From Escherichia phage vB_EcoM_G5211: a stretch of 64,000 nt of DNA. The stretch is from the sequence record MK327947.1; one strand, 5' to 3'. The notes under the pieces are model-generated. The model was not told where the DNA came from, made no database searches, and saw only the letters and a list, made by a program, of their open reading frames with translations. Of this stretch, positions 18,718 to 55,615 are shown one piece after another; within the stretch, counting starts at the first letter, position 1; every line of letters begins with the position of its first letter. A program made the position numbers and the translations under genes.

Positions 18718-19433
18718 TATAGATCCTTATTGGCTTCAAATACTGCCTTTGCGAATCCTCGCGGGGTAAGTGACCTGATAGTCTTTGTTCTGGTTCCTTT
18801 CCCGCCTAGCTTAGAATGCTGTTTACTGTACCCTTTATTAATCTGCAACGGTTTCTTTTCTGGCATTATAAAGCCTTGTCCGGTCCATAAGCAAGTCTTT
18901 TTCGGGTACATATCACGGGCGGCAATATACTCAGGAAACGTAGGATGCTTATCATCTTCCGGCAAATAACCGCCATATTCCCACGGATGGAACATGTAAT
19001 CAGGCTTACGCCACATACTAGAGATAACGCTTACAGGATTCTCTATCATGTAGGGAACTCCTAGCCATTCACCCAAATAAGCGGTTATTTTAGCTGTCCG
19101 TACATCATGAACTTGAATCAATGGTCCTTGTTCTCGTTTCTTTCGTTCAAAGTGTGCAGCGCCACTAACAGCTAAATTGGTGCACGGTGGGAATGCAAAG
19201 ATAATATCCGGTTTCCCCCATTCAAGGTCCATTGCTCTTTCCAGCCAGTTCAAATCAATCCAGGTGTTTACATAAGTAATGTTTGGATGTTCAAATCTGG
19301 TATTATACTTTTTGTATGTACCGTGGTCGGCGTCATCCGCATTAAAGCAGACTACCTTATGACCTGCTTTAGCCCATTCTAGCCCCATTATCCCCGATCC
19401 GTCAAAGTTGCAGAATATTAATTTTTGTTTCAT
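18717..19433 (-). CDS. compact DNA C5-cytosine methyltransferase-like protein
   Basis: Motif I-like FCNFDGSGIMG, catalytic-type FAFPPC, ENP (ENV-like), C-terminal R-LTPR motif IX-like; only 238 aa. Confidence 0.5.
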   Translation of the reverse strand: MKQKLIFCNFDGSGIMGLEWAKAGHKVVCFNADDADHGTYKKYNTRFEHPNITYVNTWIDLNWLERAMDLEWGKPDIIFAFPPCTNLAVSGAAHFERKKREQGPLIQVHDVRTAKITAYLGEWLGVPYMIENPVSVISSMWRKPDYMFHPWEYGGYLPEDDKHPTFPEYIAARDMYPKKTCLWTGQGFIMPEKKPLQINKGYSKQHSKLGGKGTRTKTIRSLTPRGFAKAVFEANKDL

Positions 19434-19671
19434 ATACCACCCTTTAACCCAGCACAGATTTTAGTCGGTTCTTTACCGTGCCACATTAAGTAAAGTCCGT
19501 TAATGCGACCTTGTTTTGTGTGTGATTCTTTTCTAATCTTCTTATAGTGTCGTGCTTCCTCAACTTATTGTTTAGAATACCAATCATAAAGGAAGAGGCA
19601 CAAAGGCCAACCATTAGCGGCCTTAATGCAGTTATTAAGAAATTCCTTATTGCGTTTAATTAATTTTCTTT

Positions 19672-19923
19672 TCACGCTACCCCCATTGGTTTGATAGTAA
19701 CAGAATCTAAAAGACCTTTGTTAGCCAGTTCGCGGCAAGTTTTCAGATCCGCAACTTCCCAGCCAGCCGCAATCAGGTTATCAATCAGGCTGTTAGCAAC
19801 TTCTTCGCTCATGAAAGAGCACTGTTTGCCGATGGTGTAGCGCACACGCTGTAATTTCAGTTTACGGAAGCCTTTAACGTTCAGGTCTTTAGCGATTTTC
19901 TTTGCGGTTTCGATGTTAGCCAT
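19672..19923 (-). CDS. hypothetical early protein
   Basis: ORF preceded by cassette. Confidence 0.5.
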   Translation of the reverse strand: MANIETAKKIAKDLNVKGFRKLKLQRVRYTIGKQCSFMSEEVANSLIDNLIAAGWEVADLKTCRELANKGLLDSVTIKPMGVA

Positions 19924-20006: not shown

Positions 20007-20174
20007 TTATTTGTTAATTTCTGGTGCGTTGCTAGGATAGTAACCTTCTTTAACTCCGAGGTATTTCGCAACCATCCCTACAATCTTCTGTGCTACTACA
20101 ATGTCAAATTTCAGATAATCTTCGCCGTGGGTTTCAATGATATATGCTTCACATGCTGCTTTAGTCTCGAACAT
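20007..20174 (-). CDS. 55-aa conserved small protein, copy 1 of duplicated gene
   Basis: Hand-translated MFETKAACEAYIIETHGEDYLKFDIVVAQK...; near-identical to copy at 23273..23440. Confidence 0.55.
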   Translation of the reverse strand: MFETKAACEAYIIETHGEDYLKFDIVVAQKIVGMVAKYLGVKEGYYPSNAPEINK

Positions 20175-23272: not shown

Positions 23273-23440
23273 TTATTTGTTAATTTCTGGTGCGTTGCTT
23301 GGATAGTAACCTTCTTTAACACCCAGATATTTTGCAACCATTCCGGTGATCTTCTGTGCTACTACGATATCGAATTTCAGGTAGTCTTCACCGTGTTTTG
23401 CTACAATGTATGCTTCGCATTCTGCTTTAGTCTGGAACAT
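23273..23440 (-). CDS. 55-aa conserved small protein, copy 2 of duplicated gene
   Basis: Hand-translated MFQTKAECEAYIVAKHGEDYLKFDIVVAQK...; paralog of 20007..20174. Confidence 0.55.
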   Translation of the reverse strand: MFQTKAECEAYIVAKHGEDYLKFDIVVAQKITGMVAKYLGVKEGYYPSNAPEINK

Positions 23441-41245: not shown

Positions 41246-41310
41246 TATTCCTTCTTTTGATTAATTTACTAGACTATTATACAGATTTAAGTTTACTTGT
41301 CAACTATTTG
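41246..41310 (-). promoter_or_regulatory. sigma70-type promoter upstream of gene 32
   Basis: TTGACA 41298-41303, 17-nt spacer, TATAAT 41276-41281. Confidence 0.55.
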
Positions 41311-41980
41311 TTTCGGATTTTAATTGAGATATTTCTTTACACTCTTTAACTACTTTAACAAATAATGCTCTTGCTTTTGCGGCGTCAATAACAAGTAGTT
41401 TCTTGTACGCCTTCATTTTAACACTATAAGTTTGCCAAATCAAGTCTTTGGCTACCTTGTCGTGTTCGTCGATTATATTTAGAAAGCTATCTAACAACAT
41501 AAACGACTCAAACGATATAATCCGATTTTGCAGTAGTTTAAAGATACCGCTAGTTTCGGTTGCGGGATTGTATGTAATTAGCTCTTTAAGAGTAACCCCG
41601 CGTTTCTCGGAGAAGTATACCAGACTTTTAATGTCATCGTCAAATCTTGTTGCTGCATCGGTTATCTTTCCTATGTATTCCATATAAAAGCCGTATGCGT
41701 CAACATCAGTGATTTCACCTACCCATGCATCGGTATTAGCTACCAGATTGCTTAGGAATAGGAAGTATAGTTCTCTTAGATTGTACTTTTCCGCTAATTT
41801 TGCGAAATAATACTTATCTCTGCGTTTATTGAATGCGGCATCAGACAACCGCATCCTCCAATTGTATTTTACGCAATCATAACGCCCGTTCATATGAGCT
41901 TTCATCATGCAATATAACATATACACAGATTTAGCATTAATTCGCATATCTGGATCTGGAGGAAGACGGTTTCTGATCAT
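41300..41980 (-). CDS. 59: gp59 helicase loader
   Basis: Colinear with T4 gp59 (KSVYxLY, HMNGxYD, KYNW, SDAAxxKRRDKY, LSNLVAN). Confidence 0.85.
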   Translation of the reverse strand: MIRNRLPPDPDMRINAKSVYMLYCMMKAHMNGRYDCVKYNWRMRLSDAAFNKRRDKYYFAKLAEKYNLRELYFLFLSNLVANTDAWVGEITDVDAYGFYMEYIGKITDAATRFDDDIKSLVYFSEKRGVTLKELITYNPATETSGIFKLLQNRIISFESFMLLDSFLNIIDEHDKVAKDLIWQTYSVKMKAYKKLLVIDAAKARALFVKVVKECKEISQLKSETNS

Positions 41981-49451: not shown

Positions 49452-50942
49452 ATGGCAGATTTGAAACATGGATCTACTGTAGGCGGATCTCCCATTTGGA
49501 CGCAAGGAAACTTGACGATCCAGCCAGCGGGTGATCAGCTTTTCTACAAAGGTCATAAAATCTATACCGCTTTTGATAAACCTTCGGCTGCCGATTTTGA
49601 TGCTGTTAGTGCATCCGAAGGGGGTACATTTCAGAAACTGGTCCATTTTGAGGAAGGTTTAAGCGTAGGTAGCGCATCCGGTGGAGAAACCAAAAAGAAC
49701 GGGATCTTTAAAGGCAATAGTGATGCGGCTAACTTTGACGGTGTAAGTTGGGGTTTGCATTCGTGGAAATCTATTGGTTTTGTTAATGCTCGTGATGATG
49801 TTATCATGGCTTATATTGACACTACCACAGGTGATTTTAAAACTAAAGGGACCATCGAAGGGACAACCATTAAAGACACAGGTCAACGCGTCTATAGCCC
49901 TGTTAATAAACCAACGAATAATGATTTAGATTTGGTGTCTCGTCGCGGTGATACCCTCACAGGAACATATAATTTAAACACTGTCACTGTTAAACTATCG
50001 GTTGATTCGAAATTAATTGCAAGGGAACGTGATTTAATTAATTTTGATGCGACTAAGATCTATTATGGTAACGTTCTTGATACGTTGGTCTTCCGAAGTA
50101 AAGATGAGCCTACCATTTTTGTTAATGGCAGAGAAGGTCGTTTTTATCACACCAACAATAAACCAACTAAAGCCGATGTTGGGCTAGGCAATGTCACCAA
50201 TGATGCACAGGTTAAACGTGCTGGTGATATTATGGAAGGTAACTTGCAAGCGCCTAGAATGTTGGCGACAAACGATCCGGCTGGTCCTAATGAATTGGTT
50301 CGTTTGAGCTACTTTGAGAAAAAATCAATGGTAGCAAATCCAACCATCATAGGAAACGTTGATTGGAACACTCTTATTAATCGCGGTATCTATCGTGTGG
50401 AAAATGCTGGGTCAGGTACTAATAAACCGTCTGATAGCTATTATAACGGCGTTTTGATGGTATATCGCCCAGAAGATGCGGTCGGTACTCGTCGAATTGT
50501 TCAGGTATACTATCCTGAATCTATTGATCATCCGATGTGCTGGCGTTCTTGTTCTAATGAATCATGGACTGCATGGAACTATGTAGATCACCGTAAATTG
50601 GCTGATATTCGCTATGTTAACGTCACTGGCGATACCATGACAGGACCGTTAACTGTTCCGGCGGCAAATGGCGTTCATACCGCAGAAGCTAACTATAATG
50701 GTGATAATTGCTACGCTGGACTTAATAGCTTAAATGGCACAGCAATGATTCATCGTGTTAGTGATATTAAAGCGCACGAGAAACTAGGCATCACACATGA
50801 TTCTAAAATTATTTTCGTTAAATCACGCAACAATACTCAGGACACCGATACATTTGAATTATACCACGAAGGACACAAACCAACTCCTGATGATGTTGGC
50901 GCTGTTCCGCTTAATGCGGTAATTGATTTTGGTACTTTCTAA
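49452..50942 (+). CDS. 36: gp36 long tail fiber distal connector (enlarged, 496 aa)
   Basis: N-terminus MADLKxGSTxGGSxIWxQGN as in T4 gp36. Confidence 0.8.
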   Translation: MADLKHGSTVGGSPIWTQGNLTIQPAGDQLFYKGHKIYTAFDKPSAADFDAVSASEGGTFQKLVHFEEGLSVGSASGGETKKNGIFKGNSDAANFDGVSWGLHSWKSIGFVNARDDVIMAYIDTTTGDFKTKGTIEGTTIKDTGQRVYSPVNKPTNNDLDLVSRRGDTLTGTYNLNTVTVKLSVDSKLIARERDLINFDATKIYYGNVLDTLVFRSKDEPTIFVNGREGRFYHTNNKPTKADVGLGNVTNDAQVKRAGDIMEGNLQAPRMLATNDPAGPNELVRLSYFEKKSMVANPTIIGNVDWNTLINRGIYRVENAGSGTNKPSDSYYNGVLMVYRPEDAVGTRRIVQVYYPESIDHPMCWRSCSNESWTAWNYVDHRKLADIRYVNVTGDTMTGPLTVPAANGVHTAEANYNGDNCYAGLNSLNGTAMIHRVSDIKAHEKLGITHDSKIIFVKSRNNTQDTDTFELYHEGHKPTPDDVGAVPLNAVIDFGTF

Positions 50943-50946
50943 TTCT

Positions 50947-50965
50947 AGCGGGGATTATCCCCGCT
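50947..50965 (+). terminator. hairpin + T-run after gene 36
   Basis: AGCGGGGATTATCCCCGCT + TTTCT. Confidence 0.5.
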
Positions 50966-51009
50966 TTTCTAAATAATATTATTCTAACAACCGTTAAGGA
51001 TTTTATAAA

Positions 51010-53790
51010 ATGGCAGATTTACAGAGAATCCAATTTAAAAGAACAAGTACGGCAGGTCGCAAGCCGGATGCGAATATTCTAACTCCGGGTGAACTTGCTA
51101 TTAACCTAGCGGATCGAGAACTATATACAAAAGATGACAGCAATAATGTAATTACTTTGGGACACTTTCGCGGTGAGTTGCCATCTGATGCAAATTTAGA
51201 TAATTATGGACCTACTGGTAAATTTACTGGCGTTTGGTCTAAATCAACTTCAACAAATGCGCAGCCAGCAAATAAATTCCCAGAAGAGAATGCTGTAGGT
51301 GTATTAGAAGTATTTGTGGCTGGTCAATTTGCTGGCACTCAGCGTTATACTGTTCGGTCTGGTAACGTTTATATCCGTTCTTTGTCTGCGAAATGGAATG
51401 GCGTAGATGGTCCATGGGGTCCGTGGCGCAATATTCAAACTGGCACACGTCCACTATCAACTACACTAGACTTGAATACTTTAGGTGATGCTTCTCATTT
51501 TGGGTTATGGCGAAATAGTTCAAGTTCCATTGCATCATTTTCTCGAAATTACCCAGAAGAAGGTGGTCTCGCGCAAGGTCTTTTAGAAATTTATGAAGGT
51601 GGTAACTATTCTCGCACGCAACGTTATACTACCCGAATGGGTGTTGTATATGTTCGTTGTCTTGCTGGTGCATGGGATCCAGAAGCTCCGAATTGGGGAC
51701 CGTGGCAACAAGTAGGTATGGTTACTCCCAACACATTCTATGACGGGGATCTTAATAATTTTCGTTCTCCTGGCTTATATAATATTTTAGGCACTGATGC
51801 CGTTATTAACCGTCCAGTTGCAGAAGGTGTTCCGGTTGAGATGACCGGATTGCTTGAGGTTAAACAGCGTGCTTCCGGTGGCGCTATTTTCCAACGTTTC
51901 ACTACCGCAGGAACGGGATCTACTACCCGTGGTCGTGTTTTTGAACGTGCAATGACAAATAATATCTGGGGAAATTGGCATGAAGTATATACATCTTATT
52001 CTCTGCCAATTACTTTGGGTATGGGTGGTATTAAAACTCAATTAGCGGAGCTAGATTGGCAAACATTTGATTTTGTTCCTGGTAGTATGTTTAGCGTTCC
52101 TTTGAACAAAATAAAGAACATGCCAGCAAATATGGATTGGGGTGCGATTGACGGAAACTTGGTTATGTTTTCTGTCGGTCCTAGCGAACACACTAGCACA
52201 GGGCGTACTGTTCAGGTTTGGCGTGGTACTGTATCCCAGACAAACTACCGTTATTTTGTCGTTCGTGTGTTCGGTAATTCTGGAAATAGAACTTGTACAG
52301 TTCGCCGTGTTGTTCTTGAAGACGGATCACATACTTGGACTGCTAAACAAGATTTTAATGGTGCTGTCAACTTTGGTGGTTCGACAACTTTTAAGTCCAC
52401 TACAACTTTTAACACAGAAGTTAAATTCCGTTCATCCAATGCATTTAAAATGTATGGCGGTAATTTTGGCACAATTTTCCGTAATGATGGTGAAAGTCTT
52501 TATATTCTTTCCACCGACGAAAATGATCAAGATGGAAACTTTAATACAAATAGACCTTTCCGCTATCAATTAAAAACTGGCGATGTTACTTTGGGTGGCA
52601 CTAGCGGTGCTAACGCTTTAGTATTAAAAGGCGGTTCTCTTGCTGCTACCTTTAGCGGTGATGTTAATTTAAGTAAAGGTACGCTGACGTTTGAAGCGGG
52701 TGGTAAGCAATCACGCGATTATTTCCGGTTTAATCATTGGGGTGATAGCAATAACGCTCGTGATAACATTATTCAGTTAGAAGATAGTAAAGGCGCTCAT
52801 TTTTCCACTGAACGTACTTTAGCGACTGGTGCAATTAAAACTAAATTCTTTGGTGAAGTTGAATCAACTGGTCGATTGACTATTAAACGTCCGGGTGGTG
52901 CTATTGTATTATCGACTACAGCCAGCAACGCTTTGCATATTCGCGGTGACGTAGACGGGAATGGTAACTGGTATATTGGTAAAGGTGGTGCTGATAATTC
53001 GCTAGCATTTTATAGCTATGCTACTCAGGCGGCAGTACATATAACAAACAATGGTGAGATTGCGTTAAACCCGCAAAATACCTTAATGGTTAACGTTAAC
53101 CGCGATCGTATGTATATCAATGGTGCAAGTTGGGTTGCCAGACAACCAGGTGATTGGGGCAACCAATGGCGAGTAGAAGCTCCATTATTCGTTGATCATG
53201 GTTATGTTGGTCAAGATAGTTATTATCCTATTCTTAAAGCAAGAAGCGTTATAACCAATCAAGGATATAGCACCGCTGTTGACTTTGGTATGCGTCGTAT
53301 TCCATCACAGTGGGGGCAAGCAATCATTCGTGTCGGATCCACGGAGGCTTCTCCTGATGCTGGACACCCACAAGCTGTGTTTGAATTCCATCATGATGGG
53401 TTCTTTTATACACCAGGAAATGGTAGCTTTAGCGATGTGTATATTCGTTCTGACTCCCGTCTTAAGATTAATAAAGAAGAGTTAGAAAACGGAGCACTTG
53501 AAAAAGTATGCCGTCTGAAAGTTTATACTTACGATAAAGTTAAGTCTATTAAAGATCGTAGTGTGATTAAACGTGAAGCTGGTATTATTGCTCAGGATCT
53601 TGAAAAAGAATTGCCGGAAGCTGTATCTAAAGTTGAAGTTGATGGATCTGATGTTCTGACAATTTCTAACTCGGCAGTGAATGCTCTTTTAATTAAGGCT
53701 ATTCAGGAAATGAGTGAAGAAATTAAAGAATTGAAAACTCCTTTCTTTACTAAAATTGCTCGCAAAATTAGTAAATATTTTAAATTCTAA
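51010..53790 (+). CDS. 37: gp37 long tail fiber distal subunit with C-terminal intramolecular chaperone domain
   Basis: N-terminus MADLQRIQFKR..GELAINL..TKDDS like T4 gp37; C-terminal ~113 aa carries SDxRLK ... AGIIAQDLEKELPEAV (peptidase S74-type chaperone signature). Confidence 0.85.
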   Translation: MADLQRIQFKRTSTAGRKPDANILTPGELAINLADRELYTKDDSNNVITLGHFRGELPSDANLDNYGPTGKFTGVWSKSTSTNAQPANKFPEENAVGVLEVFVAGQFAGTQRYTVRSGNVYIRSLSAKWNGVDGPWGPWRNIQTGTRPLSTTLDLNTLGDASHFGLWRNSSSSIASFSRNYPEEGGLAQGLLEIYEGGNYSRTQRYTTRMGVVYVRCLAGAWDPEAPNWGPWQQVGMVTPNTFYDGDLNNFRSPGLYNILGTDAVINRPVAEGVPVEMTGLLEVKQRASGGAIFQRFTTAGTGSTTRGRVFERAMTNNIWGNWHEVYTSYSLPITLGMGGIKTQLAELDWQTFDFVPGSMFSVPLNKIKNMPANMDWGAIDGNLVMFSVGPSEHTSTGRTVQVWRGTVSQTNYRYFVVRVFGNSGNRTCTVRRVVLEDGSHTWTAKQDFNGAVNFGGSTTFKSTTTFNTEVKFRSSNAFKMYGGNFGTIFRNDGESLYILSTDENDQDGNFNTNRPFRYQLKTGDVTLGGTSGANALVLKGGSLAATFSGDVNLSKGTLTFEAGGKQSRDYFRFNHWGDSNNARDNIIQLEDSKGAHFSTERTLATGAIKTKFFGEVESTGRLTIKRPGGAIVLSTTASNALHIRGDVDGNGNWYIGKGGADNSLAFYSYATQAAVHITNNGEIALNPQNTLMVNVNRDRMYINGASWVARQPGDWGNQWRVEAPLFVDHGYVGQDSYYPILKARSVITNQGYSTAVDFGMRRIPSQWGQAIIRVGSTEASPDAGHPQAVFEFHHDGFFYTPGNGSFSDVYIRSDSRLKINKEELENGALEKVCRLKVYTYDKVKSIKDRSVIKREAGIIAQDLEKELPEAVSKVEVDGSDVLTISNSAVNALLIKAIQEMSEEIKELKTPFFTKIARKISKYFKF

Positions 53791-53794
53791 CAAC

Positions 53795-53813
53795 AAGGGG
53801 GCGTTGCCCCCTT
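53795..53813 (+). terminator. hairpin after gene 37
   Basis: AAGGGGGCGTTGCCCCCTT. Confidence 0.5.
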
Positions 53814-53826
53814 TGGAGTATAAATT

Positions 53827-53940
53827 ATGGCAGTAGTTGGTGTTCCTGGTTGGATTGGAAGTTCAGCCGCAAATGAAACAGGACAACGATGGATGAGTCA
53901 AGCGGCTGGTCAATTAAGATTGGTGTTCCTTGCTGGATGA
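53827..53940 (+). other. 38: out-of-frame N-terminal coding segment of gp38 (apparent -1 frameshift)
   Basis: GGAG RBS then ATG 53827 encoding [32 protein letters not shown], ending at TGA 53938; downstream gp38 body is in the -1 frame. Confidence 0.6.
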
Positions 53941-54626
53941 GTCAATTTGCAGGTCGCTCGCGAGAAATTATTCATACTGTAGGAGCAAACCACAATTTTA
54001 ATGGTCAGTGGTTCCGTGATAGATGCTTTGAAGCTGGCGGTGCACCTATTGTATTCAATATTGTTGGTGATATCGTTTCTTATTCTAAAGATGTACCGCT
54101 TTTCTTTATGTATGGTGACACTCCTAACGAATACGTTGTCCTTAATATTCATGGTGGTGTCCATATGTGGGGTCGAGGTGGTAATGGTGGATACACTCAC
54201 TCAGGTGGAGATGGTAACGGTACACAAGGCGGTCATGTTATTCAAAATGATATCGGTGGACGGCTTCGTATTTGGAACTACGGTGTTATAGCTGCTGGCG
54301 GTGGTGGCGGTGGTGGTATTGCATATCGTCCACACTCAGGGGCAAACTGGCAAGATATCGGTGGCGGTGGCGGTCGACCTTTCGGTGGTGCTGGCGGTGG
54401 CGGTTATTCCGGTGGTGCTGCTTCTTATGAAGGTCCGGGTGGTGGTTACAACTATGGTAACGCACACTCCGGCGCGGGTGGTAATGCTGGCGCTGCTGGT
54501 CAGAATGCATGGTCTGATGGCGGTAAAGTTCTTAAAGTTGGTGTTGGTGGTGCTTCTGGTCATGCCGTGTTTGGATCTTCTCCAACTTGGGGCGCTGTAG
54601 GGACAATTTATGGACCTTACATTTAA
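53889..54626 (+). CDS. 38: gp38 receptor-binding adhesin, T2-type (glycine-rich motifs); N-terminus as drawn is probably not native
   Basis: Multiple poly-Gly tracts ([21 protein letters not shown]) separated by variable segments; conserved [13 protein letters not shown]...[15 protein letters not shown] attachment region. Confidence 0.75.
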
Positions 54627-54685
54627 CCGTTAAAAAAGAATTAAGGAAAAATCCCAGGGAAGGGAACTACTAAGGAGAAACGGCT

Positions 54686-54925
54686 ATGGTCTATAATATC
54701 GTCATTGGTGCTTTGTCTAATTTCGGAATGAAATTATTGTCAAAGTTAATTAGTGAAAAGATGCTCACTAAAATTTTCTTCTATTGCGCTCGTCGTCTTG
54801 CGGCTTATACCAATACGCCAATTGATGATCGTTTTGTGGAAGAACTTTATAAGGAGTTTAATAAAGATCAGTCAGAAGATAGTAACGAGCAAGATAAACC
54901 TAGTGATAGTCAACTACCTAAATAA
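54686..54925 (+). CDS. hypothetical protein
   Basis: AAGGAGA RBS; 79 aa. Confidence 0.5.
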   Translation: MVYNIVIGALSNFGMKLLSKLISEKMLTKIFFYCARRLAAYTNTPIDDRFVEELYKEFNKDQSEDSNEQDKPSDSQLPK

Positions 54926-54958
54926 GAGTACACTGTCATAGTTATCTTAGGGCATTAT

Positions 54959-55615
54959 ATGCAAGTTTCTGAAAAAGGGAAAGACTTTGCTATCTCAAAT
55001 GTCCTGCGCGCTATTTTCACAACTAAAAGCACGGAGTTGCTCGTACTTCGTGTTTTTGCTGCCGTCGTGTTGTCCATATTAGCATTTGTCGTTTATAGTA
55101 AAAACGAGTTATTTGCGCTTTATAAAGAGACTCGTTATGAGACTTATGCTCACATTCTCCAGGTAGAGAAAGACCGCAATTTTGATAATGCAGCACAGGA
55201 GCAGTTACAGATAGTTCATGTGTCGGCTGATGCCGATTTTTCTGCTGTTTTTAGTTTTCGTCCGAAAAACCTAAACTATTTTGTTGATTTGGTGGCATAT
55301 GAAGGAAAGTTACCGCATACAATCGATGAAAAAAATTTAGGCGGATTCCCTATCAATAAAACGAGTGAAGAATATCGTAGGCATCTTTTAGGTAAATCAT
55401 ATTTTACCGATAAAGATTTCCAGTATATTCCATCAAGAGAAAAGAAATTAGAGAATATCGATATAGGGTTTATGTATTCTTGCCCTATATTCAATCTCGA
55501 TAATGTCTATTCTGGTAGTATCGCCATTGCATGGAAGAATAAACCGGATATTGACATTGAGAATTTAGATACTCTTTGCAATCAATCTGCCAGAATCCTC
55601 GGAAGGATTAGATAA
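54959..55615 (+). CDS. t: holin T
   Basis: Colinear with T4 holin T (single N-terminal TM, LQIVHxSADADFSAVxSFRPKNLNYFVDxxAYEGKLP, MYSCPxFNLDN, ARILGR). Confidence 0.9.
   Translation: MQVSEKGKDFAISNVLRAIFTTKSTELLVLRVFAAVVLSILAFVVYSKNELFALYKETRYETYAHILQVEKDRNFDNAAQEQLQIVHVSADADFSAVFSFRPKNLNYFVDLVAYEGKLPHTIDEKNLGGFPINKTSEEYRRHLLGKSYFTDKDFQYIPSREKKLENIDIGFMYSCPIFNLDNVYSGSIAIAWKNKPDIDIENLDTLCNQSARILGRIR

Follow-up and report, generated by a model that had tools for sequence, protein, structure and literature searches.

A one-base frame disruption in the gp38 adhesin gene in the sequence record of Escherichia phage vB_EcoM_G5211

The stretch of record MK327947.1 analysed here (64,000 nucleotides of Escherichia phage vB_EcoM_G5211, referred to as the window) holds two overlapping reading frames at the place of the gp38 adhesin gene, and the question raised by this locus is whether the split is an error of the record, a change in the phage itself or a site at which the frame is switched during expression. 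A preliminary description of the locus had put forward three options: an indel from sequencing or assembly, a genuine mutation, and translational frameshifting. The first two both survive the analysis reported here, whereas translational frameshifting does not, as it finds neither signals nor conservation on its side.

The general layout that had been described is borne out by both the sequence and the list of open reading frames. A GGAG ribosome-binding site (53815-53818, + strand) stands before ATG 53827-53829, the codon at which gene 38 truly starts, and the annotated gp38 of G2494, ECML-134, Sf21 and Ox2 all begin at the codon equivalent to this one. The ATG opens a short frame, ORF1 (53827-53940, + strand; 37 aa), which ends at TGA 53938-53940. 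ORF1 holds gp38 codons 1-32, that is helices 1 and 2 with W9 and W22, followed by five out-of-frame codons reading VFLAG and by the TGA. The gp38 body lies, as had also been stated, in the -1 frame relative to ORF1, which is confirmed by frame arithmetic (53889-53827 = 62; 2 mod 3). As mechanically called, this second frame (ORF2, + strand) extends from the internal ATG at 53889 to 54626 and has 245 aa, the first 11 of which are non-native, while the frame itself is open from 53877. The body proper, from G33 onward (53922-54626, + strand), comprises helix 3 with W37, a linker, the beta-helix and the polyglycine sandwich.

Profile searches divide the gene in the same way. ORF1 matches Pfam Gp38_N (PF21721; 3.6e-16) over profile positions 1-30 of 40, with the remainder of the domain continuing in a frame other than that of ORF1, and ORF2 matches Pfam GP38 (PF05268; 1e-65) over 217 of the 218 profile positions. 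Genes of the gp38 family consist of a single frame of about 256-268 codons, and in the window this frame is broken after codon 32. As the sequence stands, gene 38 is a disrupted copy of a member of the T2/S16-type gp38 family, with a corrected extent of 53827-54626 (+ strand) and the frameshift at 53922-53923.

The lesion site itself (53922-53923, + strand) is found between codons L32 and G33 and reads GG in the window and GGG in relatives. The window has TTGGTG where the four aligned relatives, G2494, ECML-134, Sf21 and Ox2, have TTGGGTG (4/4), and in the longer context AGATTGGTGTTCC of the window corresponds to AGATTGGGTGTTCC in all four. The loss of one G from the three-G run shifts the frame after codon 32, and this shift is what leaves the record with an N-terminal ORF of 37 codons, the body lying in the -1 frame. 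It had been proposed that one extra G in TTGGTG would fuse the two frames. This repair is exactly what the four relatives carry, and with the G restored a single ORF is regained which encodes a 266-aa protein identical to G2494 gp38. The recommended comparison with the gp38 genes of related phages gave a consistent answer, in that every relative examined keeps one frame and GGG is present in 4/4 of those aligned.

Internal imperfect direct repeats (53837-53955, + strand) encode the pseudo-threefold attachment domain of gp38 in this part of the gene. The repeat search returned two pairs, 53837-53855 with 53920-53938 (89%) and 53890-53911 with 53934-53955 (82%), and their spacings of 83 and 44 nt in the window become 84 and 45 nt, and in frame, if the G is restored. 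Tandem WMSQ-encoding copies had been reported at 53890 and 53934, and TGGATGAGTCAA is indeed present at both positions as matched 12-nt copies, 44 nt apart. The further suggestion that this duplication promoted slippage was not supported, since the lost base belongs to the GGG run, which lies outside the repeat, with the second WMSQ copy 11 nt further downstream. The deletion also renders the 11-nt TTGGTGTTCCT (53920-53930) identical to the upstream copy at 53837-53847.

The surroundings of the gene are those of an ordinary tail-fibre locus. Gene 37 (51010-53790, + strand) encodes the distal long-tail-fibre subunit of 926 aa, with Pfam matches to Gp34_trimer, Peptidase_S74 and gp37_trimer, and the Peptidase_S74 intramolecular chaperone domain is C-terminal (residues 814-872). 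The protein agrees with G2494 QBO63218.1 at every residue. It is a T2-type fibre that needs a gp38 cap, and the S74 domain is typical of such fibres. Gene 38 follows directly on this S74-bearing gene 37 and lies near holin T (54959-55615), which is the position expected for the family. Between genes 37 and 38 there is a GC-rich hairpin, AGGGGGC-GUU-GCCCCCU (53796-53812, + strand), conserved in relatives, with a folding energy of -12.9 kcal/mol (z = -1.94) and only TTT afterwards. The preliminary description had spoken of a gene 37 terminator at this point, but the hairpin fails the terminator scan and no terminator is annotated in G2494. An element directly before the gene 38 ATG, TATAAATT (53819-53826), is conserved in the four aligned relatives. 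Its letters are close to those of TATAAATA, the late-promoter box of T4; as a promoter, its position would put the transcript start inside the first codons of gene 38.

Among GenBank phages the best megablast match of the region 53780-54640 was Escherichia phage vB_EcoM_G2494 (MK327935.1), a Krischvirus, with 861 query bases aligned to 862 record bases at 99.9%. The window overall is about 97% identical to this phage. In a per-base comparison a block of 4.9 kb (50412-55309, + strand) was identical to G2494 save for the missing G. Beginning in the last part of gene 36, the block runs through genes 37 and 38 and a 79-codon ORF into the first part of the holin gene t, and the sequence flanking it differs from G2494 by 2-10%. 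Given this identity over 4.9 kb, the deletion either post-dates a very recent common ancestor of the module or is not real, and since there are no other differences across the surrounding 4.9 kb, gene 38 is without sign of decay. The block looks like a host-range module recently exchanged between co-circulating Krischvirus phages.

The gp38 of the window is of the T2/Ox2 type, and its gene has 99% nucleotide identity to that of the Tequatrovirus ECML-134 over 811 nt. The gp38 of the RB49-type Krischvirus phages JSE and Phi1 has only about 45% protein identity to that of the window, and an N-terminal sequence of the window type is also seen in the Krischvirus records kvi, FL20, phiS and LF73P4. 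The phage is an RB49-like coliphage which carries an ordinary T2/Ox2-type gp38 adhesin gene in the usual genomic place.

The deletion allele was looked for in other genomes with a 79-nt query centred on the site, and was present in 0 of 224 GenBank phage records; all of these aligned only with a gap, the best matches being 79 of 80. Exact-pattern scans of IMG/VR, metagenome contigs and genome contigs did not return it either, while the intact allele, serving as a positive control for these scans, was found in two IMG/VR and three metagenome contigs. A tblastn search with the repaired N-terminus matched 906 phage records; all 60 of those sampled were contiguous single-piece matches, and nearly all of them begin at residue 1. 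In the articles consulted on frameshifts in gp38, every mention of "frameshift" concerned host genes.

It had been pointed out that the picture would change if homologous gp38 proteins truly started at the position equivalent to 53889 and lacked the N-terminal segment. Such homologues were looked for in both proteins and DNA and none was found. When ORF2 was compared with 5.8 billion proteins, 116 of the 120 clusters listed combined Gp38_N with GP38 in a single protein of about 256-268 aa. The remaining four listed clusters are without Gp38_N, and inspection of the DNA for three of them revealed no genuine short form. The full-length gp38 frame is intact in FL18 (PP400780) and open in JGI contig Ga0495776_001669, and in both the start had been mis-called at an internal Met. 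Logan contig SRR31546768_3325 has a different lesion, a one-base insertion at codon 3 (GCAGTT to GCAAGTT). The fourth entry, P0090 (194 aa; protein only), starts further downstream, at an IHT motif and not at the equivalent of 53889. A natural short form of gp38 with an internal start was consequently rejected, as the three short entries represent mis-called starts or a different indel.

The consequence of the break for the protein depends on the attachment domain. In the crystal structure of the S16 gp37-gp38 complex, three conserved tryptophans fasten gp38 to the gp37 trimer; each of them stands at the apex of an attachment-domain helix and fills one of three equivalent pockets (PMC6851490). 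With both frames combined, the attachment domain encoded in the window has three Trp, W9, W22 and W37, and these are the residues to which the S16 tryptophans map when the repaired protein is aligned with 6f45_D. Conservation among 50 aligned family members is 49/50 for W9, 49/50 for W22 and 42/50 for W37, and none of the 50 lacks the N-terminal segment or has it out of frame. An AlphaFold2 model was available for an intact close homologue (P0001; mean pLDDT 87.9), the first 52 residues of which are the repaired window sequence. Helices are predicted in this model at residues 10-18, 23-29 and 38-41, each directly after one Trp, and the break in gene 38 would accordingly fall in the loop that joins helices 2 and 3 of the three-Trp domain. 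With the frame broken between these two helices, ORF1 holds two anchors and the body at most one.

Comparison with solved structures supports the assignment of these parts. The chain 6f45_D was matched at 9.9e-44 by sequence with the repaired protein and at 5.3e-20 by Foldseek with the P0001 model, and 9v85 at 3.4e-62 by sequence and at 1e-22 by Foldseek with the same model (TM 0.72-0.86). The latter structure is that of the PP01 receptor-binding domain, crystallised as a GFP fusion, and the alignment to it starts from residue 38, which indicates that the gp38 body can fold alone. By itself, this body would lack its normal attachment to the fibre. Gene 38 of the T2 type is essential, in that DT2(delta-g38) forms plaques only with gp38 supplied from a plasmid (PMC12892980), and a fixed null allele is for this reason hard to reconcile with a propagating phage.

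Of the explanations that may be offered, we favour, with moderate confidence, a lone consensus error over a real mutation. The gene would then be a gp38 gene of the ordinary T2/Ox2 type from which one G has been lost relative to every known relative, and nothing in its sequence would let ribosomes or RNA polymerase correct the lesion. The GG allele would have originated as a residual indel error in the consensus, or as a minority variant taken into the consensus, and would not represent the functional state of the phage. Four observations agree with an error: the short homopolymer in which the lesion sits, the uniqueness of the allele, the otherwise perfect identity of the 4.9 kb to G2494 and the essential nature of the gene. 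There are also observations that speak against it. A run of three bases is short for a homopolymer error, and the 11-nt identity to the upstream quasi-repeat is what would also be expected from a real templated mutation. Moreover, 92 of the 109 annotated G2494 genes were matched in the window in a single frame at a coverage of at least 93%; most of the genes without such a match have no counterpart in the window, and a few others diverge only towards one end or are matched by a paralog. When all 109 annotated genes are compared, gene 38 alone is divided over two frames. The gap list contains 46 indels relative to G2494; as we read it against the G2494 annotation, those other than the lesion fall between genes or at the ends of genes, have lengths divisible by three, or are compensated nearby. 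As the frame-changing indels relative to G2494 are otherwise nearly all intergenic, the sequencing platform was not producing many homopolymer errors. A generally poor assembly was rejected, since only gene 38 is split among the genes compared, and the explanation by a single error is thereby weakened, not removed.

The same clean background can be read in another way, namely that a real and very recent one-base deletion has inactivated the adhesin. We regard this as possible but on the whole unlikely. Such a deletion might have arisen on passage, might be carried by a defective sub-population alongside co-infecting wild type, or might mark an environmental genome not viable by itself, and virions made from this genome alone would then lack properly anchored gp38 and would not adsorb. 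That gene 38 alone is split in an otherwise clean assembly fits a real deletion, and the 4.9-kb identity with G2494 shows that the change, if it took place, was recent. The short G run and the created identity with the upstream quasi-repeat are ordinary mutational contexts, and the independent codon-3 insertion in the Logan contig is an indication that N-terminal indels do occur in sequence data. Fixation in a propagated stock is nevertheless not expected for a gene that is essential (PMC12892980), and the allele is in no other record or contig of the GenBank, IMG/VR, metagenome and genome collections searched.

One may also speculate that the mutation is real and that the adhesin works as two pieces, the 37-aa peptide with W9 and W22 and a separately translated body, reassembled on the three pockets of the gp37 tip. 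The body would be made either from ATG 53889, in which case W37 is kept, or by re-initiation at Met38. There are motifs in the window which could serve both routes, and no others are seen through which a genuine GG allele might still give rise to the body. The TGA of ORF1 (53938-53940) overlaps an ATG (53937-53939) that is Met38 in the body frame, so that an ATGA overlap is formed at 53937-53940 (+ strand), a possible re-initiation point of the gp38 body, and ATG 53889 has an AGGA 5 nt upstream. The ability of the gp38 body to fold in the absence of the attachment domain, as seen for 9v85 from residue 38, and the predicted position of the break in an inter-helix loop and not inside a helix are also in keeping with two pieces. 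The motifs are, on the other hand, by-products of normal coding sequence and are identical in intact relatives, from which it follows that both the ATGA and the AGGA-N5-ATG are accidental; as a stop-start overlap, the ATGA exists only through the deletion. The sequence upstream of ATG 53937 has no Shine-Dalgarno motif, and the split arrangement is in no relative. A two-piece adhesin is on these grounds highly improbable.

There is likewise only a very slight chance that the GG allele is genuine and the phage viable with it, be it via a reassembled two-piece adhesin or via a ribosomal bypass from the first TGGATGAGTCAA copy to the second, which would give gp38 minus one anchor repeat. Were this the case, the three-helix attachment domain would be shown to withstand division or reduction.

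It remains to consider whether programmed recoding could yield full or near-full gp38 from the GG allele, by -1 frameshifting, by transcriptional slippage or by a bypass like that of gene 60. A -1 shift anywhere in the overlap 53877-53937 would join the two frames. The copies of TGGATGAGTCAA could moreover provide matched take-off and landing sites of 12 nt, and a landing at the second copy restores the body frame. Bypassing is known in T4-type phages, from gene 60 of T4. The overlap 53877-53937 contains no slippery heptamer of the form X_XXY_YYZ, however, and runs of four or more identical bases are absent from 53827-53960, including any long A/T homopolymer at which transcriptional slippage might take place. 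The RNA of 53886-53960 folds no better than shuffled sequences (z = +0.54), and that of 53925-54010 reaches -18.9 kcal/mol (z = -0.67), with 50 of 200 shuffles folding as well. The first copy of TGGATGAGTCAA is not followed by a stop codon, as CAA is followed by GCG, and in relatives the repeat is ordinary in-frame coding sequence with a spacing of 45 nt. The two-frame arrangement is unique to the window and absent from every relative examined (0/224 GenBank records; 4 aligned). The candidates were rejected one by one: programmed -1 frameshifting on account of the missing heptamer, stimulatory structure and conservation in relatives, transcriptional slippage for lack of a homopolymer of at least 4 at the shift site, and a gene-60-like bypass between the copies, the geometry of which does fit, for lack of a stop, a take-off hairpin and conservation. 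With no heptamer, no homopolymer of that length and no stable RNA structure in the overlap, we are confident that the gene 38 lesion is not programmed, and the chance that recoding makes gp38 from this allele is practically negligible.

Several other features of the window were noted in the course of the comparison with G2494. The 79-codon ORF between gene 38 and holin t (54686-54925, + strand) is also present in G2494. Our own scan returned no Pfam match for it at E <= 0.01, and the label PF26925 (Phage_PM2_Gpl) stands as a precomputed Pfam assignment on the identical G2494 product. Among the counterparts of G2494 genes just one further internal stop is present, in that of G2494_00194, a hypothetical protein of 81 aa with a GTG start (19433-19675, - strand), where codon 37 is TAA in the window and TCG in G2494. 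This is a two-base substitution and for that reason unlikely to be a sequencing error; the counterpart is either a truncated small ORF or not a real gene. Two paralogous ORFs of 55 codons each, with a mutual identity of about 89%, are located in a region of small early genes (20010-20174 and 23276-23440, - strand), and the DNA around the two cross-matches at 84-87%. Several accessory genes of G2494 are missing from the window, among them eight consecutive small ORFs (124429-126589 of G2494), an ORF of 203 aa and the gene of an HNH endonuclease (144792-145388 of G2494), with insertion points around 23500 and around 41250-41330. This is the presence/absence variation typical of mobile and accessory genes. 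No tRNA genes were found in 1-64000, and the window agrees in this with the description of Krischvirus genomes as being without tRNAs (PMC6563267).

As written, the record yields a 245-aa "gp38" with a false N-terminus and an orphan 37-aa ORF. The main value of the present analysis is one of annotation, the entry to be noted being a gp38 adhesin gene at 53827-54626 with a one-base frameshift at 53922-53923. Nothing new is implied by this, as the gene belongs to the well-known T2/S16-type gp38 family and has a one-base disruption of its frame, and the lesion raises no new biological question. If the deletion is real, it matters for host-range work or therapy with the phage.

The locus may finally be set beside systems that are already known. 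The sites of dnaX and the G/GT sites of phage tail-chaperone genes likewise have two overlapping frames that a -1 shift can join; those in the window differ in having no heptamer, stimulatory structure or conservation. Gene 60 of T4, with its bypassing, resembles the window in outline only: short matched repeats, here 44 nt apart, are found in both, and in the window no stop follows the take-off site. The likeness to solved gp38 proteins is much closer, as the S16 tip complex (PDB 6F45) and the PP01 gp38 receptor-binding domain (PDB 9V85) share with the window the three-Trp domain, the beta-helix and the polyglycine sandwich, although these proteins are single chains and the frame of the window breaks between helices 2 and 3. 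Closer still are the Tequatrovirus adhesins, the gp38 of Ox2, T2, ECML-134 and Sf21, which belong to the same family, have the same domain order and N-terminal sequence, carry GGG at the site and have genes with 91-99% nucleotide identity to that of the window over most of the gene. They differ from the window in that gene 38 is followed by t within about 30 nt and in their hypervariable loops. In G2494, finally, gp38 (QBO63219.1) is encoded by the same DNA; start, stop and neighbouring genes (gene 37, the 79-aa ORF and holin t) all agree, and the two differ by a single base: GGG and one 266-codon ORF in G2494, GG and two ORFs in the window.
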